NCBI GenBank assembly: GCA_965224085.1
Contig: CBDCYI010000011.1
Span: forward strand, 640,001-704,000
Reading direction: 5' to 3'
Length of the DNA stretch: 64,000 nt
From: Candidatus Marinacidobacterales bacterium
Lineage (GTDB): Bacteria; Acidobacteriota; Vicinamibacteria; Marinacidobacterales; SMYC01
The position numbers and the translations under genes are program-made. Shown one piece after another: positions 7,715 through 47,926 of this stretch; within the stretch, counting starts at the first letter, position 1; every line of letters begins with the position of its first letter. The notes under the pieces were generated by a model. That model saw only the letters and a list, made by a program, of their open reading frames with translations, did no database searches and was not told the DNA's origin.

Positions 7715-9448
7715 ATGAAACCTTATTTCGAGAAAATGGACGGCTTCGGCAAGGAGCTGAAAGCGGGACGCGTCAAACGCGCGGCGAGAAGCGCTGAGGA
7801 ACTGCGCAAGGTCGAAGTCGCGATCGACGCCGAGAGTCAGAAGGTCCAGGAGGCTGGCTTTCCGACCGAGAAGATCAACAAGCGCGGCTTCATGACGGTC
7901 TGGCAGAGGCTCGAATATCTCGTCGACCCAGGGACCTGGCATCCGCTCCACACGCTCTATAACCCGCTCGATAATGTTGAGGGGACGACCAACGTCATCG
8001 ACGGTCTCGCGAAGATTTCGGGGCGCTGGGCTGTGGTGATTGGCTTCGACAACAAAGTCATGGCGGGGGCCTGGCTTCCCGGGCAGTCGGAGAATATTCT
8101 CCGCGTCACGGATTTAGCGAAGCGGCTCAACATCCCGCTCGTCTGGCTCGTGAACTGCAGCGGTGCGAAGCTGCCCGAGCAGGAGAAGTTCTACGCGAAC
8201 CGTCGCGGCGCGGGCACACCGTTTTTTCGTCACGCCGAGCTCCAGCAAGCGGGCGTCCCGGTGCTCGCGGGGATTTACGGCACCAACCCAGCCGGAGGCG
8301 GTTATCAAGGTATCAGCCCGACCATCTTGCTCGCGCATAAAGACGCGAACATCGCCGTGGGCGGTGTCGGGATCGTCTCGGGTATGGCGCCGAAAGGCGG
8401 GTTCGACGCGGAGATGCTCGAAGAGCTCATTGCCAAGACGCGCGAATTCACCGCTCGGCCTCCCGGCGATGTCGAAACGCATTACGAGCATACGGGCTTT
8501 TTCTCCCGCGTCTATGAAGAGGAGACCGGCGTTCTGGATGGCCTCAAGGAGTTCATGTTGGGCGTCCCGGCTTACGGGCCCGAGTTCTTTCAGGCGGCCG
8601 AGCCGGCCGAGCCCGAATTCTCCGGTGACGATCTCTATCACTTACTCCCGTTCAATCAGAAAGAGGTCTACGACTTCGACGAGGTCCTCGCCCGCCTCGT
8701 GGACGGCAGTGAAGGAATGGAGTTCCGTCCGGACTATGGCCCCGAGATGTATACGGGTCTTTGCAAGATAGACGGCAAGCTCATCGGCTGCATCGGCAAC
8801 CGGCAGGGCTATCTGGGGAAGGGATATCCGGAATACGCGGATTACCCGGGGATGGGGGGCAAGCTATACCGCCAAGGCCTCATCAAGATGAACGAGTTCG
8901 TCACCTTGTGCGGGCGCGATCGCGTTCCCGTCATCTGGTTCCAGGACACGTCGGGTATCGATGTCGGCGACGTCGCGGAGCGGGCTGAGCTTCTGGGTCT
9001 TGGGCAGTCGCTAATCTATTCCATTCAGCAAACCGATGTTCCGATGATGCTCGTCGTCTTGAGAAAAGGCACGGCCGCGTCGCATTACGTGCTCGGGGGA
9101 CCGACGGCCAATCGCCACAACGCCTTCACGTTGGGGACGGCCGCGACAGAGATCGAGGTGATGCACGGCGAGACAGCGGCCGTTGCCACTTACGCGCGCC
9201 GCGCGGTCAAAGAAAAAGACGCGAGCCGGCCTCTCGAGCCTGTGATCGAGAAGATGAACGAGCTCGTGAAGCGCTATTACGACACGTCACGTCCGGAATA
9301 TTGCGCGCGACATGGTTTCGTCGACGAAGTGGTGAAGCTCTCGGTCTTGCGCAGCTATCTGGCGGCGTTTGCGGGCGCGGCTTATCAGAATCCGAAATCG
9401 GTCTGCCCGCAGCACCAGATGGTTCTTCCCAGAATCATCAAGGGCTGA
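7715..9448 (+). CDS. gcdA: Glutaconyl-CoA decarboxylase alpha subunit (carboxyltransferase)
   Basis: MKPYFEKM N-terminus, NRRGAGTPFFR, GTNPAGGGY, AELLGLGQSLIYSI, VMHGETAA and C-terminal CPQHQMVLPR. Confidence 0.9.
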   Translation: MKPYFEKMDGFGKELKAGRVKRAARSAEELRKVEVAIDAESQKVQEAGFPTEKINKRGFMTVWQRLEYLVDPGTWHPLHTLYNPLDNVEGTTNVIDGLAKISGRWAVVIGFDNKVMAGAWLPGQSENILRVTDLAKRLNIPLVWLVNCSGAKLPEQEKFYANRRGAGTPFFRHAELQQAGVPVLAGIYGTNPAGGGYQGISPTILLAHKDANIAVGGVGIVSGMAPKGGFDAEMLEELIAKTREFTARPPGDVETHYEHTGFFSRVYEEETGVLDGLKEFMLGVPAYGPEFFQAAEPAEPEFSGDDLYHLLPFNQKEVYDFDEVLARLVDGSEGMEFRPDYGPEMYTGLCKIDGKLIGCIGNRQGYLGKGYPEYADYPGMGGKLYRQGLIKMNEFVTLCGRDRVPVIWFQDTSGIDVGDVAERAELLGLGQSLIYSIQQTDVPMMLVVLRKGTAASHYVLGGPTANRHNAFTLGTAATEIEVMHGETAAVATYARRAVKEKDASRPLEPVIEKMNELVKRYYDTSRPEYCARHGFVDEVVKLSVLRSYLAAFAGAAYQNPKSVCPQHQMVLPRIIKG

Positions 9449-10051
9449 GTGAAGACGCGAGAACCCGCAACGAAGACGCGTAGCCTAGTCGTGCGATTCG
9501 ACGACGAAACCGAAGAGGCTGTCGCTTCGCTTGCGTTCATCGGGAACGCACCGGCCGATATCCTCGAGAAGGGTATTCTGGCTGTGCAGACGGAGGTCGT
9601 GCAGGCGGCCACGCCGACCACGTAGTGTGCCAAAACTCGATCAACGCCGGATGCTGAGTGTTGGCAGGTCGTTGAAGCGTCCGGGAGCAAGCCTGCCGGA
9701 CTCGATGGGCGGCTAGAATCCGTGCCCATGCAAGCGTACCTCTGGCAGTTCTTCGTTATGGCCTTCGCCGGATGGTCAACCGGTTCCAACAGGACGTCGT
9801 CGTCCTCACTGCCGTTCGAGATCTGCTTGGTCCCTGCGCATCCGGCGAATGCGAAACATACGGAAACGATAAAAGCGCGTCGTATGGAAATCTCTCGAAA
9901 ACGGTGTGTTCTCGAAGAGAGACCCTACCACGCCGGCGGAGACGCTTTCCCCCACAACTCCGGGTGTGCTAGTTTCACCCTCGAAAGAACGGGCTCGTAC
10001 CTCGAAGCAAAAAGAGGCGTCTTCGCTCTTTCTCTAGGAGGACTCGGAATC

Positions 10052-33921: not shown

Positions 33922-35340
33922 ATGCTTATTTTTTCGAAGCGACGCGATGCGGTGTATGGACGAGCACAGTCTGTTGCCCGGGACACGCTTCTGCTCGCCG
34001 CCTTGACACTGATGGCGACGCCGACGACGGCGAGTTTCAGCTTCCTGTCTGCGCGACCCCTGTTCTACCCGTCGCTCGCTTCACAACAAGCGAGCGCGAC
34101 GGCGGAGAAAGAGAAATCCGTCGGAGAGACGCGTCGCGGTACGGAAACGGATGAAGAGAATAGGACTGGCCTCGACGACGAACTAGGCGCGACGTTGAGG
34201 GAGCTCGATGAGCTCCTGCTGCGTGAGCAAGAGCTGCTGGAGGAGAGTCGGGAGGCCGCGGAGTCGAGCTCTTCGGATAGCGGTAGCGCCGAAGAAGGGG
34301 AAGAAGACTCGGCCCGCGACGGTGAGAGTGAGGGTGAGGATAGTGCCCGCACGCCCGGTGGTGGCTCGAGTGGAGGATTCCCCGATGCGCCACCCGCTGT
34401 GCCCCTACCGCCGCCTGCCGGCATGCTCGCGGGCGGGGAACGGACGCAAACGACAATCGGTCGCGCGCCACCGCCACCGGACGTCAGCGACGGCGGAGAG
34501 ACGCGTCGCGGTGCGGAAACGGATGAAGAGAAAAGGGCTGGCCTCGACGACGAACTAGGCGCGACGTTGAGGGAGCTCGATGAGCTCCTGCTGCGTGAGC
34601 AAGAGCTGGCTGAGGAGAACCGTGAGGCCGCGGAGTCGAGCTCTTCGGATAGCGGTGGCGCCGAAGAAGGGGAAGAAAACTCGGCCCGCGTCGGTGAGAG
34701 TGAGGGTGAGGATAGTGCCCGCACGCCCGGTGGTGGCTCGGGCGGAGGATTGCCCGATGCGCCACCCGGTGTGCCCCTACCGCCGCCTGTCGGCATGCCC
34801 GCGGGCGGGGAACGGACGCAAACGACAATCGGTCACGCGCCACCGGACATCGGCGACGTCGGAGAGACGCATCGCGGTACGGAAACGGATGAAGAGAAAA
34901 GGGCTGGCCTCGACGACGAACTGCGCGCGACGTTGAGGGAGTTCGATGAGCTCCTGTTGCGTGAGCAAGAGCTGGTGGAGGAGAGCCGGGAGGCCGCGGA
35001 GTCGAGCTCTTCGGATGGCGGTGGCGCCGAAGGCGGGGGAGAAGACTCGGGCGCGAGCGCCGCGGACGACCGCGAGGGTGAAGATAGTGCCGGCACGCCT
35101 GATGGTGGCGCTGCCGGAGGATTGCCCGATGTGCCCCTACCGCCGCCGACGGGCACTCCCGCGGGTGGCGCGACAACCGGTCGTGCACCACGTCCACCGG
35201 ACGTCGGCGACGGTCGTGATGACGATATCGTGGCACGGCAACTCCGTGAGGCCGCGCAGAATGAAAAAGATCCCGCGCTGCGTGAAAAGCTGTGGGACGA
35301 GTACCGCGCCTACAAGCACGGAGCCAGCGTCAACAAGTAA
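33922..35340 (+). CDS. Exported acidic/Pro-rich protein with three ~122-aa repeats; first gene of the envelope operon (start uncertain)
   Basis: Repeats of ETDEE.R.GLDDEL.ATLRE.DELLLREQE; unique C-terminus DDDIVARQLREAA..EKDP.LREKLWDEYRAYK. Confidence 0.75.
   Translation: MLIFSKRRDAVYGRAQSVARDTLLLAALTLMATPTTASFSFLSARPLFYPSLASQQASATAEKEKSVGETRRGTETDEENRTGLDDELGATLRELDELLLREQELLEESREAAESSSSDSGSAEEGEEDSARDGESEGEDSARTPGGGSSGGFPDAPPAVPLPPPAGMLAGGERTQTTIGRAPPPPDVSDGGETRRGAETDEEKRAGLDDELGATLRELDELLLREQELAEENREAAESSSSDSGGAEEGEENSARVGESEGEDSARTPGGGSGGGLPDAPPGVPLPPPVGMPAGGERTQTTIGHAPPDIGDVGETHRGTETDEEKRAGLDDELRATLREFDELLLREQELVEESREAAESSSSDGGGAEGGGEDSGASAADDREGEDSAGTPDGGAAGGLPDVPLPPPTGTPAGGATTGRAPRPPDVGDGRDDDIVARQLREAAQNEKDPALREKLWDEYRAYKHGASVNK
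34123..35200 (+). repeat. Intragenic tandem triplication (periods 372 and 366 bp)
   Basis: GGAGAGACGC..CGCGGT.CGGAAACGGATGAAGAGAA starts at 34123, 34495 and 34861. Confidence 0.9.
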
Positions 35341-35381
35341 CCGGGCAATCATTGAATGACGATAAATGAAGGAGGACAGCG

Positions 35382-36615
35382 ATGCGGAGCCCAGATTTGA
35401 TTCTTCGGTGGACCGTCATCTGTATTTTCGCGGGAGGGCTTTTAGCTCCGTCTCTTTCGGCCAGAGAGAACCGGCAAGTGGACGCCATCCAAGCCCATTC
35501 CGAGATCCCGGAAGAAAGTCTCTTGGACGTAGGGATTCTCGTCTTCGATCCGGGACTGCCAGAAGACGAAGAGGAGGTCTACGATTTGGAAGCAAAGGGC
35601 GTCTTCGAAGGTGTCCGCAAGGCCGAGGCACGCTACATAGCAATCCAGCTCCAGCGGACTCTGGAGTCCACCGGTAACTGGGGCGCCGTGCGCGTCGTCC
35701 CGGCCGCGAATCGAGTGGACGTGAAAGTGTCGGGGCGCATCGTCACCTCGACGGGAAAGACTCTGGTCGTGAAGCTCCGCGTGGTGGATGCCCGCGGCCG
35801 CATTTGGCTGAACAAAAAATACAAGGGCAAGGCGAATGTAGGCTCCTATAGGCGTAAGGAAAGGTGACCGGCGGGATCCCTTTCAAAGCCTCTACAACCG
35901 AGTCGCCAACGACATGCTGAAGTTTCGCGACAAGAAACTCGACGCGGAGGATTTTCGGCAAGTGCGCATGGTCTCCCGCCTCGAGTTCGCCGGTGATCTT
36001 GCTCCCACCATCTTTGCCGACTATCTGCGCGTGGATAGGAAGGGACGCCGTTTCATCGAAAAACTGCCGGCGGAAAACGATCCCATGATGGAGCGGATCG
36101 CCGAGATTCGCGAACGGGATCGGATGTTCGTCGATACTCTCAACGAGCATTATGCCGACTTCTACACGAAGATGGATGAACCCTATGACAGTTGGCGATC
36201 CTTCGCCTACGAAGAGCAGAGAGAGCTCGACAGCCTGAAGAAAAAATCGAAGTGGGCGAAGATTCTAGGGACGGCGGCCGTCATCGGCGGTGCCGTGGCG
36301 GCCGCGAAGGGCGGAGCAGGAAGCTTTGCCGGACAAGCGGGTATCGGTGGCGGGATCGCCGCGATTACCTATGGGATGAAGCAGTCGGGGGATATCAAGA
36401 TGCACCTCGAGGCCATGCGTGAGCTCGGGGCCTCGCTCGATACCGACGTCTCCCCGATGGTGATCGACGTGGAAGGCGAGGTCACGAAGCTCAGCGGCTC
36501 TGTGGACATCAAGTACGCCACGTGGCGCCGGTTATTGCGGGAGATCTTCGCCGCCGAAACGGGGATTCCCATCGACCCCAACACGGAGGTCGATCTGGGC
36601 GCCCCGAGCAACTGA
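35382..36615 (+). CDS. Exported protein with a glycine-zipper segment; 1-nt frameshift near 35860
   Basis: AGGAGG RBS and signal peptide. ORFs 35382..35867 and 35914..36615 join if one A is removed from GAAAGG. Contains GTAAVIGGAVAAA..G...GIGGGIAA. Confidence 0.7.
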
Positions 36616-36710
36616 GTCGTTCGCGACACCTGCACCAGCGTCATGTATGCGCTAGTGCAAGGTCAATCGCTCCATCGAAGGTTGACGTGAGTCAGAGAGA
36701 GGTGTGGCTG

Positions 36711-37895
36711 ATGCAATATCAGGAAAGTTCGGAACGCGCGGTGGCCACGCGTGCCGAGAAGTTCAAGCTCAGGCCTCCGCCGCGTGTGACGGTGAAACCC
36801 ATTCCGCTGGAATCAAAACGCCGGGTCAACGAGCTTCAGGGCGGAAAAAGTGGCGTCGGGTGGATCACGGTGACGGCCCTCGTCATCCTTCTCCTGATGG
36901 CGTTCTCGGTTTTCTTCGTCCTGCCGACGTGGGTGCACGACCGTTCGGCCCAAGCGGCGTTCATTGTCGAGCCTGTTGAGAGTGCCGAGCCTGTCGAGCC
37001 TGTTGAGCGTGTTGAGCCCGTCGAGCGTGCAACCGACGTTGCGGTAGCGTCCGCTGCGCCATTGCCCGTCACGGCGATCGAGAGCTCGCGGGCGCCGGCG
37101 TCTCCCAAAGATGAAGCGGAGCCTGCGCGGGAGCGCGCGACGGCCTCCCAACACGAAGCCGCGGCCGTCGGTCCGGTGGACGGGACGACCACCGAGCAGG
37201 CCTTTATCGAGGTCATGTCCCAAGGGATGGCGGCGCTCGAACGCGGAGACTACCGTGCCGCACGGGATGCTTTCCAGCGAGCCAACAGAATGCGACCAGC
37301 GGCGGCACAAGTCGCCGATGGACTGGCGCAGGCCGAGCAAGGCCTGAATCTTGAGGCGATGGCCGCCCTTCGCCAAAAGGCGCTCGCCTTCGAGGCGCGG
37401 GAGGCGTGGCGGGAGGCGTCGAAGCACTATCAAGCGGTGCTGGAGCTGGACCCGGCGATTCGCTTCGCTCAGCAAGGAAAGGCGCGGTCTCTAGAGCGAG
37501 CCGAGCTCTCCAAGCTGCTGGAGTTTCAACTGAAAAACCCATCGCGACTGTCCGATGACAAAGTGCTCGAAGAGGCGTCCGCGCTCCTCAGCACCTCTTC
37601 GGGAATCGAGCCCGCCGGTCCCGAGCTCCGGCGGCAGTTGAGCGCGCTCGAAGCGCTCATCGCCAAGGCCTCGATGCAGGTACGCGTCGCTTTCGAATCC
37701 GACGACTTGACCGAGGTCGTGATCTACAAAGTGGGCCGCCTGGGAAAATTCGCTCACCGGGAGCTGGACCTTCGTCCTGGCACTTACACGGTCGTGGGTA
37801 GCCGGCGCGGCTACCAGGACGTGCGGCGGCAACTCGTCGTCGCGGCGGGCGTCGGGCCCGAGCGCGTGGTGGTGCGCTGCGAGGTGAAGATTTGA
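36711..37895 (+). CDS. Bitopic membrane protein: TM, Pro/Glu linker, TPR-like helices and C-terminal PEGA-like domain
   Basis: TM WITVTALVILLLMAFSVFFVLP; GDYRAARDAFQRA; LRPGTYTVVGSRRGYQDVR. Confidence 0.75.
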   Translation: MQYQESSERAVATRAEKFKLRPPPRVTVKPIPLESKRRVNELQGGKSGVGWITVTALVILLLMAFSVFFVLPTWVHDRSAQAAFIVEPVESAEPVEPVERVEPVERATDVAVASAAPLPVTAIESSRAPASPKDEAEPARERATASQHEAAAVGPVDGTTTEQAFIEVMSQGMAALERGDYRAARDAFQRANRMRPAAAQVADGLAQAEQGLNLEAMAALRQKALAFEAREAWREASKHYQAVLELDPAIRFAQQGKARSLERAELSKLLEFQLKNPSRLSDDKVLEEASALLSTSSGIEPAGPELRRQLSALEALIAKASMQVRVAFESDDLTEVVIYKVGRLGKFAHRELDLRPGTYTVVGSRRGYQDVRRQLVVAAGVGPERVVVRCEVKI

Positions 37896-40324
37896 CGTCA
37901 CCGATCTACATCGAGGATGTTCGAGGCAGCCGCGTCGTCGCGGCTGGTGCGTTCCCCTTGACGCTGGGCGGGCCGGATGCTGACGTGGAGCTTCCAGGCG
38001 TTCACGCTCCCGAGCCCGTGGGCTACCTCGGTCTCTCGGAGGGAGAGCTCTTCGCACAGCCCGCAGAGACCGGCCCAGGGCTGGTCGGTAACGGCGCCCG
38101 TGTGTCGACGTCTCAGTGGCTCCACCCCGGTGACGTTCTCGTCATCGGTCACGCCCGGATCGTCGTCGAGCATGATGGGACGCTCACCCGATTGCGAGTG
38201 GAAGCAAACGGCGTGGAGAACAAAACGGACCCGCCCGAGGTGGTTTCTGCAGCGGCGCCACCGAAGCTCCATGCCGAGCTTTCCTCGAGCACGATCAAAC
38301 CCGTCGCTTTCGAGCCCGCTTCCATCACCACCGGACGTGGCAAGCGGCGCGCCCCTCGTCCTGCGGTGCTCGCGTTTTGGACCTCCGTGGTGCTTCTCGT
38401 CGCTTTCGGCTGGCTCGTCTTCAGCACACGATCCATCGAGGTTCGGATCGAGCCGCCAGCGGAGAGAGTCTTCTTCGAGGGCGGTCTTTATGCTCTCGAG
38501 CTGGGCGGCCGGCATCTCGTGCGCTCCGGGAGCTATACCCTCGTCGCGGAGAAAGAAGGTTATCGAAAACTGGAGGCTCGAGTCACGGTGACGAGTGAGG
38601 GCGGTCAAGTCTTCCGCTTCACCCTGCAGGAGCTCCCGGGTCGTCTCACCGTCGAGACGCCGGTGGATGGCGCCGTTATATGGATCGACGGCGAGAAGGC
38701 CGGGGTGACGCCGCTCGATCCGGTAGAGCTCCCAGCGGGCGAGCACGAGGTGCGGATTCGAGCCGAGCGCTATCAGGAATTCTCCACCCGGGTGAGCATC
38801 CAGCGTCGTGGCGTCGAAATATTGAAGGCCGAGTTCGTACCACGCTGGGCGCCCATCACGTTCCGCTCGGCGCCTGAGGGCGCCATCGTGCGCGTCGATG
38901 GCAAGAATCTGGGCACAACCCCCATCACGGTGGATCTCTTGGAGGGAGCTCATGCATACGAGCTGAGCGTGCGGGGGCGCAAACCACACCGAGGCCGGGT
39001 CACCGTCGTGGCCCGCGAAGAAAAAACTCTGCCCACGATGAGCCTTGCCCTCGTCGATGGGAATCTGCATCTCGAATCCAGCCCCGCGGAGGCCAATGTA
39101 ACCATCGACGGCGTCTACCAGGGTCAGACCCCATTGGACGTGGATCTTTCGCCCGGGGACGAACACGAGATGGGTGTGTCACGAGCCGGCTACGAGTCCC
39201 AATCGCGCCGAGTGCGGATCGACTCGGGCGTGAGCCAAACTCTGCGTGTCGATCTCGCCGTTCAACTCGGCGAGCTCGCGATCGCGGCCGACCCGCCCAC
39301 CGCCGAGTTCTTCGTCAACGGCGAGCCTCGCGGCCAGGCTAGCCAGCTCATTCGCCTTCCCGCCGTGGCGCAGCAGATCGAGATTCGGAAGGCGGGCTAC
39401 GAATCCTTCACCACAAACATCACTCCGCGGCCCGGATTCCCGCAAAGCATCGAGGTCACTCTCAAAACGTTGGAGGAGGCCATCACGGATGCCAGACGAC
39501 CCGTCATCAAAAGCGCTCAAGGACACGAGCTGCGGCTCATCGCCCCGCGCCGCTTCCAGATGGGCGCCTCGCGCCGCGAGCCGGGACGGCGGGCCAACGA
39601 GGCCATCCGGGACGTCGAGCTCACCCGCTATTTCTATCTCGGGACCAAGGAAGTCACCAACCGAGAGTTTCGCGCCTTCAAACCGGAGCACCGCTCGGGC
39701 TCGGTGAGAGATATCAATTTGGAGGGTGACCTTCTCCCCGTGGTTCGCGTGACCTGGGAAGAAGCGGCCGCGTACTGTAACTGGCTGAGCGATCGGGATT
39801 CACTCCCCCACGCCTACGTCCAGAAGGGAGCGACGCTGGCGCCGGTAACGCCTCCGAACACCGGTTACCGGCTGCCCACGGAAGCGGAATGGGCGCGGGC
39901 GGCGCGCTATCCCGATGGGGAGCGCGGGCGCAAATACCCTTGGGGTGGCGCGCTGCCAGTAGCCCCGGGCTCGGGAAATTATGCCGATGCCTCCGCCCAG
40001 GCATTGGTGGCCGCCATCCTGCCGAAATATAACGACGGGTTTGCGGCGACGGGCCCCGTGGATAGCTTCGACCCCAACCCGATGGGTCTTTTCAACCTGG
40101 GAGGAAACGTCGCGGAGTGGATCCAGGATCTTTATACGATCCGCCCATCGGGCACATCCAAGCTCGTACGGGATCCGCTGGGCCCCACGCAAGGGAAGTT
40201 TCATGTCATTCGGGGGTCGAGCTGGATGCACGGCCGAGTGACTGAGCTCCGTCTGAGCTTCCGCGACTACGGAAATAAGAAGCGGCCCGATGTGGGGTTC
40301 CGCATTGGGAGATACGCCGAATAG
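37892..40324 (+). CDS. FHA-like, TM, multiple PEGA and C-terminal FGE/sulfatase-modifying-factor domain protein
   Basis: FPLTLGG...L.PGDVLVIG (FHA-like fold), a TM, repeated S.P.GA.V.IDG..G.TP, then EVTNREF, PVVRVTWEEAAAYCNWL, YRLPTEAEW and GNVAEW. Confidence 0.9.
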   Translation: MTSPIYIEDVRGSRVVAAGAFPLTLGGPDADVELPGVHAPEPVGYLGLSEGELFAQPAETGPGLVGNGARVSTSQWLHPGDVLVIGHARIVVEHDGTLTRLRVEANGVENKTDPPEVVSAAAPPKLHAELSSSTIKPVAFEPASITTGRGKRRAPRPAVLAFWTSVVLLVAFGWLVFSTRSIEVRIEPPAERVFFEGGLYALELGGRHLVRSGSYTLVAEKEGYRKLEARVTVTSEGGQVFRFTLQELPGRLTVETPVDGAVIWIDGEKAGVTPLDPVELPAGEHEVRIRAERYQEFSTRVSIQRRGVEILKAEFVPRWAPITFRSAPEGAIVRVDGKNLGTTPITVDLLEGAHAYELSVRGRKPHRGRVTVVAREEKTLPTMSLALVDGNLHLESSPAEANVTIDGVYQGQTPLDVDLSPGDEHEMGVSRAGYESQSRRVRIDSGVSQTLRVDLAVQLGELAIAADPPTAEFFVNGEPRGQASQLIRLPAVAQQIEIRKAGYESFTTNITPRPGFPQSIEVTLKTLEEAITDARRPVIKSAQGHELRLIAPRRFQMGASRREPGRRANEAIRDVELTRYFYLGTKEVTNREFRAFKPEHRSGSVRDINLEGDLLPVVRVTWEEAAAYCNWLSDRDSLPHAYVQKGATLAPVTPPNTGYRLPTEAEWARAARYPDGERGRKYPWGGALPVAPGSGNYADASAQALVAAILPKYNDGFAATGPVDSFDPNPMGLFNLGGNVAEWIQDLYTIRPSGTSKLVRDPLGPTQGKFHVIRGSSWMHGRVTELRLSFRDYGNKKRPDVGFRIGRYAE

Positions 40325-40351
40325 GAAGAACTTGGACTAAGGAGGCCTGAG

Positions 40352-40544
40352 ATGAGATTCGTTCTATATGCGCTCTTGGCATTGACTCTTTTGGGAGCTC
40401 GTCTGGCATCGACGATGACCGTTACGAGTGGACAAAGCAAACAGAAACAAGACGAGCTTCCCACGTTGAGACGAGCTTCCCACGTTCACCCCTACGGAGA
40501 AAGTACCCGCGGGCATTGCTGTCTCGTTTCCCGCGGATATCTAA
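40352..40544 (+). pseudogene. 57-aa exported peptide ending SFPADI, frame broken by a 19-bp tandem duplication
   Basis: AAGGAGG RBS. Removing one copy of the repeat at 40450-40486 gives ...QDELPTFTPTEKVPAGIAVSFPADI*, ending 4 nt before the MotA-like start. Confidence 0.7.
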
Positions 40545-40548
40545 GTAA

Positions 40549-41346
40549 ATGAAAAAAAACTACCCGGTCGAATTCATGTATCAGGCGTTCTCGTTGCTCG
40601 TGGCGGTGATCCTCGTCCACGCGGTCTACGTGTTGCTGGTGAGGCCGAAAGCGGATGTCGTCCTGGCCACCGCGCAGGCGTTCATGGAGGTCGAGAAGGG
40701 CTACGTCCAGGAGCGATCCTTCTGGGTCATCGTCCGCGATATCGAACAGGAATCCTGCTTCATCCTCATGTTCTGGGCGCTGGCCATCATCGCGTATAAG
40801 GGTGTGCTGGCCTCTCGCGAGCACCAGCTTCTGCAGAAGGACCTCGTGCCGCTCGCCGCAGGCTCGAAGGTCCTTCCCGAGGACGCCCGGGAATATGCCC
40901 GGCAGATCCAGTCGCTTCCCGATATCGAGCGAAGCCGCTTATTGCCGCGCGCTCTTCTGTCGGCGCTCGGCCGCTTCCGAGCCACGCGCAACATTCAGGA
41001 CGTTTCCGCCACCGCCCACGCGGTGTGCGCCTCGGAATCGGATCGGCTCGAGTCGGAGCTTTCCATGGTGCGCTATATCGCCTGGGCCATTCCTTCCATA
41101 GGCTTCATCGGAACCGTCCGCGGCATCGGCGAGGCCCTCGCCCAGGCCCACAAGGCGGTGGAAGGCGACATCGCCGGGGTTACCCAGAGCTTGGGTGTCG
41201 CCTTCAACTCCACTTTCGTCGCGCTCCTCATCAGCATCTTGCTGATGTTCGTCCTGCATCAGCTTCAGCTTCAACAGGATCGACTCGTTCTGGAGACGGA
41301 CAACTATCTCGACGGCCGCCTCATCGAGCATCTTCAGGTCTCCTAG
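40549..41346 (+). CDS. MotA/TolQ/ExbB proton-channel family protein
   Basis: AIPSIGFIGTVRGI and GVAFNSTFVALL motifs; four hydrophobic segments. Confidence 0.92.
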   Translation: MKKNYPVEFMYQAFSLLVAVILVHAVYVLLVRPKADVVLATAQAFMEVEKGYVQERSFWVIVRDIEQESCFILMFWALAIIAYKGVLASREHQLLQKDLVPLAAGSKVLPEDAREYARQIQSLPDIERSRLLPRALLSALGRFRATRNIQDVSATAHAVCASESDRLESELSMVRYIAWAIPSIGFIGTVRGIGEALAQAHKAVEGDIAGVTQSLGVAFNSTFVALLISILLMFVLHQLQLQQDRLVLETDNYLDGRLIEHLQVS

Positions 41347-41376
41347 CGATCGAGGTTTTCACTATTTTGGATTCTC

Positions 41377-42468
41377 ATGGCGCGCAGCACACCTAATGTT
41401 TTAAGCCTGTCCTTTCTGGACGCGATGACCTGCGGGTTCGGCGCCGTGGTGCTGCTCTTCATGATCCTCAGCGCCGGCTTCGGCGAGCGCTCGGGGAAAA
41501 TGAGCGGGGAGCTTCAAGGTGAGGTCGACCGTCTGCACAAGGAGGTTTTGGAGGGTTATCAGAACCTGGTGGTGCTCCGAAACTCCGTCACGGAGATCGA
41601 TCGGGAAAACGTCGTCACCGCGGGTCTTTCGAAGCGGCTCCTCGAGACCCTCGAGACGATTCGAGTCGAGCTGGCCAATGACGAGAACGAGACGCTGGCG
41701 CGACGAGAGCACGTCAACAAGCTCAAGGCGGATCTCAAATCGCTCGAGGAGGATGTCAAACGCCTTTCCGCGGCGGCCCCGAGCGAAGAGACGCCGGGCG
41801 ACAAGCTTCTGAGCTTCGTGGGAAGCGGGGACCGGCAGTACCTCACCGGCCTGAAGGTCGGCGGAAGACGTATTCTCGTGCTCGTCGACACCTCGGCGAG
41901 CATGCTGGGGGAGACCATCGTCAACATCATTCGCCGGCGCAACATGCCCGACGAGGCGAAGATCCGCGCCGCGAAATGGCAGCAGACCCTTTCGACGGTG
42001 AACTGGATCGCCACTCAGATCCCCCCCGCGAGCAGCTTTCAAATCTATACGTTCAACACTCGAGCAGGCGCCGTGGTGGCGGGGACCGACGGGACGTGGC
42101 TGAACGGGGGCAACCGTGGGGATCTCGACAAAGCAGTCCAGGCCTTCCGACGCGTGGTTCCGGAGGGCGGCACCAATCTCTATCAGGCCTTCAAGGCCAT
42201 CGAGACGCTGCGCCCGGCGCCGGACAATATCTTTCTTCTCACCGACGGGCTCCCCACACAAGGGAGGAAGCCGCCCCGTGGCCGTACCGTGTCCGGTAAG
42301 GATCGCGCCAAGTTTTTCAACGAAGCTCTCTCCAAGCTCAGCGGTAGAACCCCCGTCAACGTGATCCTCTTCCCCATAGAAGGCGATCCCCAGGCGCCCA
42401 GTGCCTTTTGGAAGCTGGCCGTCTCCTCGGGAGGCGCCTATGTGAGCCCTTCGGAGGACTGGCCATGA
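41377..42468 (+). CDS. vWA protein 1 with ExbD/TolR-like N-terminal anchor and coiled coil
   Basis: SLSFLDAMTCGFGAVVLLF; heptad-rich linker; MIDAS DTSAS...GGT...LTDG. Confidence 0.88.
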   Translation: MARSTPNVLSLSFLDAMTCGFGAVVLLFMILSAGFGERSGKMSGELQGEVDRLHKEVLEGYQNLVVLRNSVTEIDRENVVTAGLSKRLLETLETIRVELANDENETLARREHVNKLKADLKSLEEDVKRLSAAAPSEETPGDKLLSFVGSGDRQYLTGLKVGGRRILVLVDTSASMLGETIVNIIRRRNMPDEAKIRAAKWQQTLSTVNWIATQIPPASSFQIYTFNTRAGAVVAGTDGTWLNGGNRGDLDKAVQAFRRVVPEGGTNLYQAFKAIETLRPAPDNIFLLTDGLPTQGRKPPRGRTVSGKDRAKFFNEALSKLSGRTPVNVILFPIEGDPQAPSAFWKLAVSSGGAYVSPSEDWP

Positions 42469-42496
42469 AGAGAGCTCCCGGCGCGGTGGTGTAGAA

Positions 42497-43474
42497 GTGT
42501 TCAGCCTCTCTTTCCTGGACGTCATCTGTTGCGGCTTTGGCGCCATCATCCTACTTCTCGTATTGGTCAAGATTGGTGAGCCGAGGGCACTCGAAGCCGC
42601 TCAGGCGGAACGGATAGGCCTGGTGGCAAAGCTGCAAGAAGAGCTATACGAGATCCGGGGGGAGACGAACGTGCTCAACCGCAAGCTCGTGACGAAACGG
42701 GAGCAAGTCTCCGAGGAGACGGTCAAGGTTGCCAGGCTCCGGGGCGACCTCAGCAAGATCCAAGGACAATTTGCCGCCAGCGCGCAGCTCTCCCAAGTCA
42801 GCGACATCGTCGAGGGGAGGTTGTTGGCCGCGCAGCAGGAGCTGAGCGAAGAACAGAAGCGCCTTCGCGGCAAGCGCTCTCGGCCGCGCCCGAAAGACGC
42901 TCCCATCGGCGGGATCCCCGTGGACAGCGAGTACATCATCTTCATCATCGACACCTCGGGCAGCATGAAGAGATTCGCCTGGCCTCTGGTGATGAAGAAG
43001 CTAGTGGAGACGCTGAGCATCTACCCCAAAGTGAAGGGCATCCAGGTGATGAACGATATGGGGCAGTACCTGTTCAAGAGCTACTCGGGAAAGTGGATTC
43101 CCGACACGTCCGGCCGGCGCAAAGTGATTCTGGACCGGCTGCGTGGCTGGGCCCCGTTCAGCAACTCGAGCCCGGTGGAGGGGATCACCCGCGCCATACG
43201 AACCTACGCCAGCCGGGACCACAAGGTGAGTCTCTACATCTTCGGCGACGAGTTCACGGGAGATTCCATCGATGCGGTGGTGGAAACGGTGGATCGGATC
43301 AACCGGAAAGATGCCGATGGCCATCGTTTGGTGAGAATCCACGCCATCGGTTTCCCCACCGTGTTCTCGAATGCTGGATTTTCGCAGAACACCGGGATCC
43401 GCTTCGCCACCTTGATGCGCATCCTCGCCCGCAAAAACGGCGGCGCCTTCGTGGGACTGAGCCGGGCTCGGTAG
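42497..43474 (+). CDS. vWA protein 2 with ExbD/TolR-like N-terminal anchor and coiled coil
   Basis: SLSFLDVICCGFGAIILLL, DTSGSM and FGDE. The coupled ATG at 42465 is out of frame by 1 nt. Confidence 0.88.
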   Translation: MFSLSFLDVICCGFGAIILLLVLVKIGEPRALEAAQAERIGLVAKLQEELYEIRGETNVLNRKLVTKREQVSEETVKVARLRGDLSKIQGQFAASAQLSQVSDIVEGRLLAAQQELSEEQKRLRGKRSRPRPKDAPIGGIPVDSEYIIFIIDTSGSMKRFAWPLVMKKLVETLSIYPKVKGIQVMNDMGQYLFKSYSGKWIPDTSGRRKVILDRLRGWAPFSNSSPVEGITRAIRTYASRDHKVSLYIFGDEFTGDSIDAVVETVDRINRKDADGHRLVRIHAIGFPTVFSNAGFSQNTGIRFATLMRILARKNGGAFVGLSRAR

Positions 43475-43804: not shown

Positions 43805-46202
43805 CTAACCTGTCGATGCCAGCGCTTTGAGCCGCTGCTCCGCATCCGCGGCTAGCCCATGTTTCCCTTTTAGGTCTCTAAGTCATCATAAACAAAGGAC
43901 TGAGATCCGCGGTTTGTCTCTACGCTGACAGCACCTCCTCGGAGAAGGCTGGCGGGTCGCGTTCAACGATTCCGAGTGCAGTCAGGATCGAGTTGGCGCG
44001 AGCGGTGCCGCGCGTGACGACGCGCTTGGTCCGCCCAGAACCCAGCTGTAAGTCGACGAGCCGGACCGAGCGTAGCGCTTGTAGTGCCTCGGTTGCGGAC
44101 AGGTCGAGTTCGGCGACCTTGAGCTTTTTCTCAAGAGCCCGATGCACAAGGAAGGCCAGCGTAGCTACGAAAAGATGTGCCTCCACACGCTCATCGGTCT
44201 GGTGGTAAACGGGACGCATCTCAATGACATCCTTAAGGCATGAGAAGGCTCGCTCGACCTCGTTTAGGTCCTTGTAAAGGCGCACGGCGTCGACCGGAGA
44301 GAGGTTTTGCTCCTCGGTTTGAATAACGTACTTACCCTCGTAGGCTTGCTCGCGCTTGAGGTTGACCGGGTGCTCGAAGAAGCGGAAGCGAGCGTTTTTG
44401 TACTCCCAGTCGTAGTAACGGTGACCGTGGTGGCGTGCCTGTATGCGCGCGGCGGCGGCACCGATTTTCTCGGGGGCTTTCAATCGTCCCTCGCGCACGC
44501 GGCGCTCAAGGGCCTCGAATGCCGCACGGGCACGTCCCATGGCCCGCAGCCTCTGCCCGCGCTCGTAGGCGAGCCTTTCGTCGCTGTGAACGACGAAGAT
44601 GCGCACGCCAGACTGCTCGGAGCGGACTTCTTGCACACGAGTCTTAGGTGGCTCGGCTTTTTCGCTCACCGTGATGCCACCAGGGCAGTCGATCCACTCT
44701 CCGCTGGCGCGCTCGATGTAACGATAGACCTCCTCGCGCCGTCGTCTTTGCAGCCCGACGAGATAGCCCTGCTTGCGCGAGCGCACCACCGCCAGGCTGT
44801 CGCTCGTTACCATCCCTCGGTCGCCGACAAAAACCACGCGGTGCAAACCGAATCGTTCGTTGAGATCGTTGAGCACCTGCGGCACCGTTTTCGCGTCACG
44901 CCAGTTGCCGGCGAAAACATGGTGGGCGATCGGCCAACCGTCCACCATCACCAGACCGACAAGCACTTGCCGGTTACGCGGTCTGCGGTCGCGACTGTAG
45001 CCGTGGGCGCCGAGCCCCGGAGGGCCTTGACCTTCGAAGTACGTCGACGTCAGGTCGTAAAACACCATGTCAACCTCAAGCGAAAACAGATCCCGCAAGC
45101 GCAAAAACAGCTCTTTCTCGATCTGTTCTTTGCGGGCATGCAGCTGGTCGAGCGTTCGGTACCATTGCTTGAGTTGGCAAAACTCCACGCGAACCCGCGG
45201 GGAGCGACTCGCTCGCCGCTCCCCATCATCGCGCCACTGCGGCACCCACCGCCGCCCCTGCCGGTCGCAGACGAAGTCGGTCTCGAGCCAGCGCGCCAGA
45301 CCGTGCTCGCTTGACGGAGCACATAGCCGGTTGGCGACCAGCACCAAAGCTCGCTCGCTTAGCGCCACTCCGTCGCGCTTGCCGCGGCCTCCGAGCCGGT
45401 CGAGAATCTGCTCCAGTCCGAGCTCGCGCCACAGCGTCGCCGTCACCACCATCGGACCCCAATCCCACGCGTCTGCCCCCGCGATCTGCTCGGCTGCTCG
45501 CTCGGTGTCGGCCGGTTCACCGGCCCCAAGCAACCGATTGAGGGAGTCGAGATTGGCAACTAGGAGATCCTTGCGCCCCAAGTTGCACACTACGCGTTGC
45601 TTCGGCTTGCCGTGCTCCCGATACGACTCGACCAGGCGGACATACTCATGTTGAACCCCTTTGCCGCCTGCGGCCCGAACGATGCGGAAGAACATAACCT
45701 GTCCTCACGCATACTACATATCATTGTCCACGATTACAACGTATTAATGGCGCTCAAAGCACAATATCTGTCTCTACGTTTTGGGCAAATTCAACCCCCG
45801 TTCCTTTGAATTCAGTCACTTACGAGCGTTAGGGTGCCCATAAAGGGTAAACATGGGCTAGTTCCCGGGTCAGATCGCCGGCGCCGATTTCGCGGCCGAG
45901 ACTGCCGCCTGTCCCGACCACAGCGAAGAGAAATCGCTGGACCCTGCCGCCTCCGCTTTTGCTTTCAGCGGCGCCAGGGCCCTGCCAGCCGTCGGGAACG
46001 CTGGCGCCCGGTCCGACATCGGCCCGACCTCCCGCATGACTCGATTCATCAGCCCCCGCGACGGTCTGCCGGAAAACACGTTGGTCCATGCAGTTTGGTC
46101 GTCACGCGCGGCGCGTAGTGCAGCGCGGTGTAGATCCGTGATCAACGACTCCGGCGTGAAAAGGTAAGCGGTGCCGATTTGAGCACCTGCCGCGCCGAGA
46201 GC
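43805..46202 (-). pseudogene. Nitronate monooxygenase C-terminal remnant split by IS1634
   Basis: GAQIGTAYL, TNVFSGRPSRG and SSLWSGQ motifs. DLTRE|LAADAEQRLKALASTG* resumes at 43855-43805 across the IS. Confidence 0.8.
43856..45857 (-). mobile_element. IS1634-family element (2002 bp) with an intact transposase at 43920..45695
   Basis: VFYDLTSTYFEG, GYSRD, VFVGDRGM and Y..L.EVERAF..LK motifs; IRs CCCATGTTT.CC.TT; CTAG on both flanks. Confidence 0.92.
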
Positions 46203-47688
46203 TGCTGCTCACACAGACCTCACGGACAATTGCGAGCAGGTTTTCGACGAGCCCCTGTTCTGGCGACACTCCAGACAGCAGGGCCGGCGCGTGAAGAGTT
46301 GTAGCGATAGCAACTCACTGCTCGATTGGCCGCGCTCCTGACCTGCTGCGCCCTCTTGCGGTGCTCGGAGAGCCGCTCTAGCAGATTCTCCTCACGGCCG
46401 AAGTACACCTCGTCTGGTGTACGACCGCCGAGAACGGCGCGCGCGATCTTTTCATTGTGCTCACCGACGTAGAAGGCGACGAGACGCCGTACCGCCGCCG
46501 TACTGTCGAGGGCGTTCAGGAAGAGCCATGCGTGCTTCAATTGTCGCCAAAACGCTTCGATCAAAGAGTTCGAGCAGACTATGTCGATTTGCGCGAGCAC
46601 GCGACTGAGAGAACTTGAATCCTTGAGAAGTTGATCTACCTCGCCGAAGTTCTCCGAACCGCCGTCGGTGACGACAAGCACGCTGGCGTTCGCTGCGGCG
46701 ACAGGGACGTTCTCTGAGGCCTCAATGAGCAGCTCGCGTGTTGTTGCCGAGCTCAGAGCGTCGCTCACCCGCCAAGCAAGAATCCTTCGGCTGAAGTTGT
46801 CGATGACCGCTTGGAGGTAGATTCGGATGCCGGTCGTCAGCCGGAGCACGGTTGTGTCGATTTGCCAATACTCGTTGGGCCGCGTTGCTCGGAGGCCTTC
46901 TTTGGGCTTCGCGGGATGCACCCGCCTTCGAGGACGCTTCCAGCTGCGCTCGTGGATCATCTTGTACCAAGTGCTCACACAGGCGAAGAGCTTGCCAAGG
47001 CGCTGCACGTAGAGAGCCACGTTCTGGATCGCTATATGACGATATGTCTCGGCCTCGACAAAATCCCTCATCGTGGAGACTTCGTCACGCGTGAGCTGGC
47101 TGGGAAAGGATTTCGGACAGCTCGATTGATCGTCAAGCCCGCAGCCCTCTTCTTTGCGTCGCCAAGCGTGATAACGCGCCGATGAGATGCCTACGATCTG
47201 AAGTGCGGTGCCCAGCGACAGCAGGCCGGTCGCCGACGCGATCGCGCGCAGAACGGCGGATTGTTTTGCACCATCGGGAAGGCGATCGCCGTCGAGTTTA
47301 CCGCCACGGAGATTCAACAGCCGCACCAGTAATCCGATGATCGCCGACTGCACTCTCGCTCGCTGACATAGTTTATCGACCTGCTCCAACAGTTCGTAGA
47401 CCTCTAGCTCAACGTCGACCGCAGCGACCACTGGACGCACCTCGCCACGTGCCCATGTGCGCCGCGTCGAGGCCGGGATGGAAACGTCCCGGAACAGGTC
47501 CGCGTTACCGGTCGCGGCGATGGCATCGCGCAGCCTATGGTCGTAGGTTTGTCGAACTCGGAGGCTTCCTTCCATGCCCAAGCATGGCAGGCAGCTATTC
47601 ACATGGCCAGCCGGCCACTCATAGAAGTCTGCGAACGATCCTGTCGAACGTTCGCTCTCCTTACTCCAGAATGATCGTGCGAGTAGCA
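46203..47688 (-). mobile_element. rve/DDE-type IS (IS3/IS481-like); transposase ORF 46220..~47560
   Basis: PNEYWQIDTT, VIDNFSRRILAW, TDGGSEN and NSLIEAFW motifs; imperfect IRs TGCT(G/A)CTC(A/G)CAC; no target duplication seen. Confidence 0.8.
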
Positions 47689-47926
47689 CTGCAGCGAAGC
47701 ACCAGGCCTTTGTCGGAACCGGCTACTTTGATGCCGTACAGAGCACGATCACCGGCGGCAAAGCATCGATAACCGCGATGCGAGGCAGCACGGAAGAAGC
47801 ACAGTTCTCCCTGCGAGAGGTCGACGAGTCGAACGAAGCGACCCGAACGTCGCCGACACTGGCGGCGCCATGATTGCGGGTCGTAGTGCCAACGACAGCT
47901 GAAGTCATTGCGGAACGGCTACACGG

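Follow-up and report, generated by a model that had tools for sequence, protein, structure and literature searches.

A vWA-domain protein pair encoded beside a TolQ/ExbB/MotA-type channel gene in a Marinacidobacterales genome: candidate halves of a heterodimeric motor axle

Introduction

Ion-driven 5:2 motors power flagella, TonB-dependent uptake, the Tol-Pal system, gliding and type IX secretion, and the dimeric partner of the channel sets the task. ExbD, TolR and MotB act as homodimers and are oriented with the N-terminus in the cytoplasm. In the AglR-AglQ/AglS gliding motor of Myxococcus, one TolQ-like channel reportedly works with two TolR-like partners that are thought to form a heteromeric axle. 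The GldL-GldM (PorL-PorM) motor of type IX secretion is a 5:2 machine with a periplasm-spanning dimeric partner and is associated with the GldK/PorK ring. Here, we analyzed a stretch of 64,000 nucleotides, hereafter the window, from the genome of a Candidatus Marinacidobacterales bacterium (assembly GCA_965224085.1, contig CBDCYI010000011.1, positions 640,001 to 704,000). It encodes a MotA/ExbB/TolQ-family channel protein followed by two membrane-anchored proteins with von Willebrand factor A (vWA) domains, which we call partner 1 and partner 2. We consider it probable that the two partners are the halves of a heterodimeric axle for the channel encoded upstream. The features of the presumed motor, in window coordinates and all on the + strand, are as follows; MIDAS denotes the metal ion-dependent adhesion site.

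40549..41346, +, MotA/ExbB/TolQ-family channel gene (265 residues; Pfam PF01618), presumed pentameric part of the motor
41377..42468, +, partner 1 (363 residues, ATG start): short tail, trans-pore-type helix, coiled coil and vWA head
41398..41469, +, partner 1 membrane helix, residues 8-31 (Asp15 codon 41419-41421; Cys19 codon 41431-41433)
41470..41772, +, partner 1 coiled-coil stalk, residues ~32-132, delimited by AlphaFold2 helices and heptad-spaced contacts
41854..42465, +, partner 1 vWA domain, residues ~160-363 (MIDAS motif DTSAS at 41887-41901)
42465..42494, +, out-of-frame mini open reading frame (ORF) starting with ATG, apparent relic of the basic cytoplasmic tail of partner 2
42497..43474, +, partner 2 (325 residues, GTG start): helix, coiled coil and vWA head
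42497..42568, +, partner 2 membrane helix, residues 1-24 (Asp8 codon 42518-42520; Cys12 codon 42530-42532)
42914..43471, +, partner 2 vWA domain, residues ~140-325 (MIDAS motif DTSGS at 42950-42964)

The locus resembles the ExbB-ExbD, TolQ-TolR and MotA-MotB systems in that a channel gene precedes genes for single-helix proteins of predicted N-in topology, with an Asp near the cytoplasmic end of the helix and charges that follow the positive-inside rule. It differs from them in that the helix is followed by a coiled coil and a vWA domain, with no match to an ExbD, MotB_plug or OmpA-like domain, and in that two paralogues stand in for one homodimer. AglQ and AglS are small TolR-like proteins that have neither a coiled coil nor a vWA head. 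The locus shares with GldL-GldM-GldK an FGE-sulfatase-fold envelope protein encoded alongside, and the best NCBIfam match of an 810-residue neighbor is GldK. However, that match is far below the cut-off, the partners described here end in vWA domains, and general scans, none of them aimed at these families, showed no GldL, GldM or GldN. BatA and BatB are likewise membrane-anchored bacterial vWA proteins, and BatB (PDB 3ibs) is among the fold matches of the partners, but Bat proteins have no MotA-like neighbor and have other operon partners; we know of no conserved Asp-bearing helix in them.

The closest described family is that of the "TPH-vWA" pairs (Mol Biol Evol 2025 msaf138; PMC12204202). 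According to the text of that paper, these proteins occur mostly as heterologous pairs tightly linked to tolQ homologues in the absence of tolR or exbD, with a conserved helix Asp and without the SHLS motif. AlphaFold 3 models of a 5:2 complex from another species are described there as placing the helices inside a TolQ-like pentamer, beside a ring of Thr residues. Phenotypes are stated as unknown, the exemplar comes from Idiomarina, and Proteobacteria and Verrucomicrobia are named. The proteins of the window share the features described in that text: a helix-tethered vWA pair, linkage to a tolQ-like gene without tolR, exbD or motB, the helix Asp, the channel Thr residues and the lack of SHLS. 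This likeness is one of described features. The window copy itself has neither an Hsp70-like/FHA gene nor the tail of partner 2. A term search of the paper's text gave no match to PEGA, Hsp70 or Acidobacteri-, and its sole FHA match was FhaC. We found no paper on a cluster combining the channel with vWA, FHA and PEGA proteins, although the figures and Zenodo files of PMC12204202 may show more. An eLife 2020 paper on conflict systems (PMC7159879) was set aside: its relevant passages treat other vWA systems and make no mention of MotA or TolQ. With that of PMC12204202, the core idea of the present analysis is in print as a prediction, and what this locus contributes is a further member with its context rather than a new principle. 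What is new is the conserved gene cluster, a second copy without the Hsp70-like/FHA gene, the loss of the partner 2 tail and the evidence for purifying selection.

Results

An invariant Asp in the N-terminal helix of both partners

The N-terminus of partner 1 reads MARSTPNVLSLSFLDAMTCGFGA and that of partner 2 reads MFSLSFLDVICCGFGA; the motif SLSFLDxxxCGFGA is common to both. An initial annotation, made from the sequence alone, had placed the Asp of this motif like the proton-carrying Asp of ExbD, TolR and MotB, and had pointed to the shared Cys and to a short basic tail on both proteins. To follow the conservation of these features, orthologues were drawn from 80 genome loci, 80 metagenome loci and related genomes, yielding non-redundant alignments of 56 partner 1 sequences (A1) and 59 partner 2 sequences (A2). 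The record titles assign them to Acidobacteriota, Desulfobacterota, Gamma- and Alphaproteobacteria and a Polyangiaceae metagenome-assembled genome. F13, D15, C19, G20, G22 and L26 of the partner 1 helix are invariant (56/56), as are L4, F6, L7, D8, C12, G15, L19, L20 and V22 of the partner 2 helix (59/59). All 99 partner 1 and all 91 partner 2 N-termini inspected contained FLD...CG, in some cases with a conservative change such as LLD or FID.

We then turned to deeper relatives, taking the best 150 representatives of clusters at 50% identity, which are 34-67% identical to partner 1. Both Asp and Cys were found in 110 of them, and Asp without Cys in 5 (A, N, V, S and V instead). One further representative has an aberrant N-terminus, and the helix region is missing from the remaining 34, whose gene calls are truncated or fused. 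Thus, 115 of the 116 representatives having an N-terminal helix region carry the Asp. The proposed invariance of the Asp was borne out in both alignments and in all 115 representatives with the motif region. The Cys proved near-invariant, as the initial annotation had suggested, but its replacement in 5 of 115 representatives indicates that it is not essential. The family is large: 7785 of 8000 candidates scored matched at E ≤0.001, and clustering at 50% identity gave 1337 clusters.

The charges around the helix suggest its orientation. Ahead of the helix, the tail has a median net charge of +3 in partner 1 and +2 in partner 2; over the 15 residues after the helix, the medians are 0 and -2, respectively. 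Since these medians follow the positive-inside rule, the N-terminus would be cytoplasmic, and the stalk and vWA head would lie in the periplasm; this sequence-based N-in, C-out topology is what we infer for both partners. In the relatives, the tail holds a median of 3 Lys/Arg residues in partner 1, and in partner 2 it comprises ~10 residues with a median of 4. The claim of a short basic tail on both window proteins did not hold, since the tail of partner 1 contains a single Arg and partner 2 has none as encoded. A hydropathy segment spans residues 8-37 of partner 1.

Cleavage of the N-terminal segments as signal peptides, which had been named as an outcome that would contradict the proposal, would leave mature proteins that are soluble periplasmic vWA proteins. 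In some lineages, small residues do follow the hydrophobic N-terminus (NAKSAA in Desulfobacterales). However, the residues following the helix, where a cleavage site would lie, vary by lineage, while the Asp, the Cys and the GxGA residues inside the segment are invariant, which disfavors cleavage. Moreover, the ~24-residue segment is predicted to run unbroken into the stalk helix. Conserved residues within a helix and a variable flank are not what a cleaved signal peptide would be expected to look like, and we regard this explanation as hardly credible.

Two paralogous proteins with coiled-coil stalks and MIDAS-containing vWA heads

Partner 1 and partner 2 are paralogues. They align by BLASTP with an E value of 8e-11 and 30% identity over 177 columns, and their orthologue families match each other in hhalign with a probability of 99.5% and an E value of 1.7e-22. 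The AlphaFold2 model of partner 1 (mean predicted local distance difference test score, pLDDT, 76.8) contains a long helix at residues 8-101, continued at 107-132, followed by an alpha/beta domain, and its vWA domain reaches a pLDDT of 88-96. The model of partner 2 (mean pLDDT 78.7) contains a long helix at residues 6-125, followed by an alpha/beta domain with elements from 146 to 320. In Foldseek searches, the head of partner 1 matched CLCA1 (6pyo, E 9e-7), with BatB (3ibs) as another match, and the head of partner 2 matched ITIH1 (6fpz, E 3.5e-7) as well as BatB and integrin I domains. Partner 1 also matches Pfam VWA_2 (27.4 bits, cut-off 27), and partner 2 has no Pfam vWA match. We nevertheless assign a vWA domain to partner 2, because of its fold matches and its family-level match to partner 1. 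A PDB sequence search with the partner 2 profile returned coiled-coil proteins only, above E 0.02.

Both heads carry the MIDAS motif DxSxS, as DTSAS at residues 171-175 of partner 1 and DTSGS at 152-156 of partner 2. Residues D171, S173, S175 and D290 of partner 1 are invariant in A1, and T266 is kept in at least 90% of the sequences. The invariant residues of partner 2 in A2 include D152, T153, S154, S156, S222, S224 and D251; FSNSSP stands at the position of the downstream Thr of the MIDAS. Each paralogue has an invariant linker of its own: that of partner 1 is GDGDRQYLTG-like, and that of partner 2 reads GGIPVDSEY. Such distinct linkers fit two non-redundant halves. The initial description of two paralogous ORFs, each with a helix, a coiled coil and a MIDAS-type vWA domain, is therefore upheld by coordinates, BLASTP, hhalign, AlphaFold2 and Foldseek alike. 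A reading of the locus as a defense system was rejected: PADLOC returned no match to the vWA proteins, and its ZorA match to the channel was weak (E 2.7e-5).

A divergent channel protein without an ExbD- or MotB-type neighbor

The channel gene matches PF01618 (MotA_ExbB) with an E value of 3.8e-14 and 53 bits against a cut-off of 22.9. Its score against the NCBIfam TolQ model, 29.7 bits, is far below the cut-off of 221, indicating a divergent member of the family. Hydropathy segments lie at residues 5-39, 69-89 and 213-242. Two stretches, RYIAWAIPSxGFxGTVRGIG (containing T189) and AFNST (containing T222), are invariant in 46 of 46 channel orthologues, and we take them to be placed where TolQ/ExbB-type channels carry the Thr residues that face the Asp of the partner. 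Searching PDB sequences with the channel-family profile gave 0 matches at E 0.01.

The genome assembly (6.87 Mb in 12 contigs, 95.3% complete) holds 4 MotA_ExbB genes and 3 ExbD genes. All 3 ExbD genes adjoin two canonical channel genes, one on contig C11 (1.284 Mb) and one on contig C5 (1.312 Mb). At these ExbB/TolQ-type loci (C11:1283849-1284686 and C5:1311375-1312723), one channel gene is accompanied by a single ExbD/TolR gene and the other by two in tandem. The remaining 2 MotA_ExbB genes each adjoin a vWA pair, in the window and on contig C5, respectively. No exbD, tolR or motB Pfam match was found among the cluster genes, the ExbD genes of the genome being ~600 kb or more away, and MotB_plug (PF13677) is absent from the 95.3% complete assembly.

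The initial annotation called the anchors ExbD-like. Aligning the helix with ExbD did not substantiate homology: in hhalign against 27 ExbD/TolR proteins, taken from this genome and 12 relatives, profiles of the helix alone (the N-terminal 45 residues) reached probabilities below 1%. Neither partner has a Pfam match to the MotB plug or to the OmpA-like peptidoglycan-binding domain. "ExbD-like" is thus an analogy of position and context, and homology is not demonstrable.

Complex prediction supports a parallel heterodimer

We predicted the complex of full-length partner 1 and partner 2 from alignments A1 and A2 in three runs, together with three controls. The heterodimer obtained ipSAE scores (an interface score derived from predicted aligned errors) of 0.80, 0.79 and 0.80, and the best of the 3 unrelated-protein controls scored 0.00. 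It thereby passed an ipSAE mark that 116 of 157 solved complexes and 2 of 215 mismatched pairs attain, a calibration that holds only roughly given the custom alignments. The runs share at least 59% of their contacts, with a partner pLDDT of at least 71. The earlier suggestion that one copy of each paralogue makes up the dimer gains from this fold, at 0.80 against 0.00 for the best control.

The predicted dimer is parallel and in register. Contacts between the helices involve residues 21, 24 and 28 of partner 1 and residues 14, 17-18 and 21 of partner 2. Along the stalk, heptad-spaced contacts join residues 39-102 of partner 1 to residues 32-95 of partner 2. The heads touch through their C-terminal strands, residues 351-362 of partner 1 and 315-323 of partner 2, and these contact strands carry invariant residues (G353, W362 and P363 of partner 1; N314, G316, F318 and L321 of partner 2). 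The prediction supports binding between the two partners without showing it.

The vWA pair ends a conserved gene cluster

All 106 loci with a downstream flank of at least 1.3 kb have partner 2 directly downstream of partner 1, and all 92 loci with an upstream flank of at least 3.3 kb have a MotA-like gene upstream of partner 1. All these loci were found with partner 1 as bait; the counts therefore speak for a neighborhood conserved within the family and not for its frequency in bacteria. The vWA pair forms the end of a conserved cluster of ~10 genes on one strand, whose further members in the window are listed below.

33922..36615, +, three upstream cluster genes without a family match (472, 161 and 233 residues), syntenic in relatives
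36522..37895, +, membrane-anchored TPR protein, helix 108-140 by hydropathy, sub-threshold TPR matches
37892..40324, +, PEGA/FGE-sulfatase envelope protein (810 residues; Pfam PEGA and FGE-sulfatase)
40352..40545, +, small secreted protein gene, with the signal-peptide part and the C-terminal peptide in different frames

In all 92 other loci, the channel gene and partner 1 are separated by a gene for an Hsp70-like/FHA protein (465-480 residues in the loci inspected), for example at 8578-10020 of locus L001; the second cluster of this genome (G000) has it at 169678-171090 of contig C5. The gap between channel gene and partner 1 is 1033-2180 nt in these 92 loci and 30 bp in the window. The C-terminal FHA domain of the protein is matched by Pfam with E values of 4.5e-10 to 3.4e-7. 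Its N-terminal 300 residues give weak PDB profile matches to nucleotide-binding domains of the Hsp70 family (E 2.6e-4 to 1.6e-2), so that the label Hsp70-like is a sequence-based lead rather than a fold assignment.

The 810-residue protein comprises a cytoplasmic N-domain, a membrane helix at residues 154-184, five PEGA repeats (E 6e-49 over 5 stretches) and an FGE-sulfatase-fold domain (E 7.7e-42), and it is syntenic in relatives. Its best NCBIfam match is GldK (TIGR03525; E 3.3e-30, 105.7 bits against a cut-off of 350). The equivalog cut-off is not reached, and what the protein has in common with GldK/PorK is only the FGE-sulfatase fold family. A sub-threshold FHA match in its N-domain (E 0.017, in 1 of 3 orthologues) is a weak lead. 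The C-terminal half of the TPR protein is syntenic in relatives as well. Relatives match it from about residue 70 at the earliest, and mostly from 150-280, so its true start probably lies well downstream of 36522. The ORFs 35914-36615 and 36522-37895 overlap by 94 bases.

The N-terminus of the small secreted protein resembles a signal peptide, and the linker behind it is variable, being acidic and Pro-rich in some lineages. Conservation across phyla is seen in the last 19 residues, with the pattern FxP[ST]E..A[DE]....FP[VA][DN]I directly before the stop; in the window, this C-terminal peptide reads FTPTEKVPAGIAVSFPADI, followed by the stop. In 88 of 91 loci (e.g., L001 7344-7760), an ORF ending in FP[VA][DN]I closely precedes the channel gene; this ending pattern was chosen after examples had been seen. 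The window gene is too short for the default ORF listing, and no family name was found for it. As a speculation, this C-terminal peptide, with acidic residues of the sort that MIDAS sites bind, could be a ligand of the MIDAS. The three genes at the upstream end (33922-36615) match no Pfam family. The first (33922-35340) encodes a 472-residue protein with three near-identical, acidic and Pro-rich repeats of ~120 residues; in relatives, conservation of this protein is confined to its last 45-150 residues. The 161-residue product of the second has a signal-peptide-like N-terminus, and the 233-residue product of the third contains a Gly-rich stretch.

The window holds a variant copy under purifying selection

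Besides the cluster in the window, the genome carries a second one on contig C5. The C5 cluster is of the usual type with the Hsp70-like/FHA gene, which is the only type in four genomes of the same genus; in a survey of related genomes, 24 of 31 were matched (G027 counted). The window proteins are 52-75% identical to the C5 copy, and their closest counterparts are those of sister-family genomes (70-72%). The nearest metagenomic relatives of the window copy, at 85% and 83% identity, retain the Hsp70-like/FHA gene. Two transposase genes (DDE_Tnp_1 and an rve integrase core) lie downstream of the vWA pair on the minus strand, at 43920-45695 and 46220-47689, and would fit a second cluster copy that arrived or moved as mobile DNA.

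Partner 2 also departs from its relatives at its start. As encoded, it begins with GTG directly before the helix and has no basic tail, and in the nearest relative, L120, the tail is in frame. The stop codon of partner 1 overlaps an ATG at 42465, but the frame opened there is shifted by one base relative to partner 2 and closes with a stop at 42492-42494. The gene for the small secreted protein is split by a +1 frameshift, which results from a perfect tandem duplication of 19 bp (1.9 copies, 40450-40486).

Contigs from other sequencing runs were compared with this region. Three runs, each from a different study, yielded contigs that span 40300-42600 and whose sole difference is the 19-bp duplication; they show the same frameshift in the tail and likewise lack the Hsp70-like/FHA gene. 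From a fourth run, on a sediment metagenome, comes a contig of ~97.5% identity that bridges the short junction. The assembly may derive from one of these runs. In run X1, the stretch is covered in short pieces only, and the uncovered parts were left out of the comparison. Because the duplication is absent from the contigs of runs X19, X20 and X21, it is either private to the assembly or an assembly error.

The vWA genes of the window are under purifying selection. For partner 1, dN/dS against the nearest relatives is 0.19 and 0.20, and partner 2 gives 0.18; these values are like the 0.23 between those relatives. The dN to an outgroup is 0.207 for the window and 0.208 and 0.224 for the relatives, and thus shows no acceleration. 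A comparison with contigs of a related population gave 12 synonymous and 10 non-synonymous codon changes, which are small numbers. We rejected a decaying window copy on the grounds of these dN/dS values, the unaccelerated rate, the codon changes and the lack of the duplication in three runs. In the simplest reading, the window encodes a working second motor that either has no need of the Hsp70-like/FHA protein or uses the one encoded in the C5 cluster.

Discussion

The computed architecture and paralogy of the two partners, the invariance of their helix residues, the synteny with a channel gene, the absence of ExbD and MotB genes beside the vWA-linked channels and the heterodimer fold that passed its mark all bear on the proposal, and on balance we find it probable that the vWA pair forms the two halves of a heterodimeric axle. 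The topology, the insertion into the pore, the ion coupling and the client in the following scheme are what we infer. Each partner would be inserted N-in and C-out, and its helix, with the Asp near the cytoplasmic end, would fill the place of the ExbD/TolR/MotB helix inside the channel pentamer, the Asp lying next to the invariant Thr residues of the channel. The two chains would cross the periplasm as a parallel coiled coil of ~100 residues, and the two vWA heads would pack together through their conserved C-terminal strands. The MIDAS sites could then bind an acidic residue of a client, for which the PEGA/FGE-sulfatase protein, the TPR protein and the C-terminal peptide of the small secreted protein are candidates. 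Proton flow would turn the pentamer against the dimer, so that the client might be pulled or turned.

Other explanations of the same genes have to be weighed. The partners could be plain BatA/BatB-like membrane vWA proteins, with the Asp serving helix packing and the MotA-like protein acting independently or as a scaffold. Foldseek matches including BatB 3ibs and the aerotolerance-related vWA protein 4jdu point that way, as does the lack of sequence homology to ExbD. An invariant charged residue in the helix across phyla and the strict adjacency to a partnerless MotA/ExbB/TolQ gene argue otherwise; moreover, MoxR and DUF58 genes accompany Bat operons, and general Pfam scans of the neighbors showed neither. 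This makes a Bat-like role unlikely. Alternatively, each paralogue might form its own homodimer, so that two kinds of motor share one channel protein. Such an arrangement would accord with the established behavior of ExbD, TolR and MotB, and the complex prediction covered the heterodimer alone. Against it stand the side-by-side occurrence of the paralogues in every one of the 106 loci, the invariant linker that is particular to each, and a heterodimer fold with contacts on conserved residues over its whole length; we consider separate homodimers quite unlikely.

It could also be that the vWA proteins sit outside the pentamer as TonB/TolA-like force transducers, with the axle coming from elsewhere. 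The text of PMC12204202 describes a separate vWA family of this kind, which has the SHLS motif. Neither helix of the present pair holds a His or an SHLS motif, though, and the cluster contains no exbD, tolR or motB, the three ExbD genes of the genome lying beside canonical channels. A transducer role of this sort appears very unlikely.

Several observations nevertheless weigh against a heterodimeric axle. Support for all family members is computational. Beyond the helix-only comparison, hhalign of the helix or full-length families against the 27 ExbD/TolR proteins gave probabilities of 0.1-2.4%, and Pfam found neither ExbD (PF02472) nor MotB_plug in the first 40-50 residues; without a profile match, the Asp in a membrane helix is the only sequence-level likeness to ExbD. 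Coiled coils can score well in complex prediction, and the controls were unrelated proteins rather than other coiled coils. The prediction, moreover, was made without the pentamer or the homodimers. In the window itself, the Hsp70-like/FHA gene is missing (41347-41376), and the insertion or orientation of partner 2 could differ in the absence of its charged tail.

A wider proposal takes in the whole cluster. It would constitute a trans-envelope machine of ~10 genes distributed over several phyla, composed of a vWA-headed 5:2 motor, a PEGA/GldK-like protein, a TPR anchor, a small protein as MIDAS ligand and a cytoplasmic Hsp70-like/FHA protein with a gating role. Such a machine would parallel GldLM-GldK without being related to it, and the window copy would be a natural "ungated" form or one served in trans. 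We put this forward as a doubtful, if conceivable, extension.

If the axle proposal is true, a coiled-coil vWA heterodimer would be a further route by which energy crosses the periplasm, and it would grip its client in a metal-dependent manner. The conserved neighbors provide concrete candidates for the client and the regulator, and the window variant offers a comparison of the motor with and without the Hsp70-like/FHA gene.

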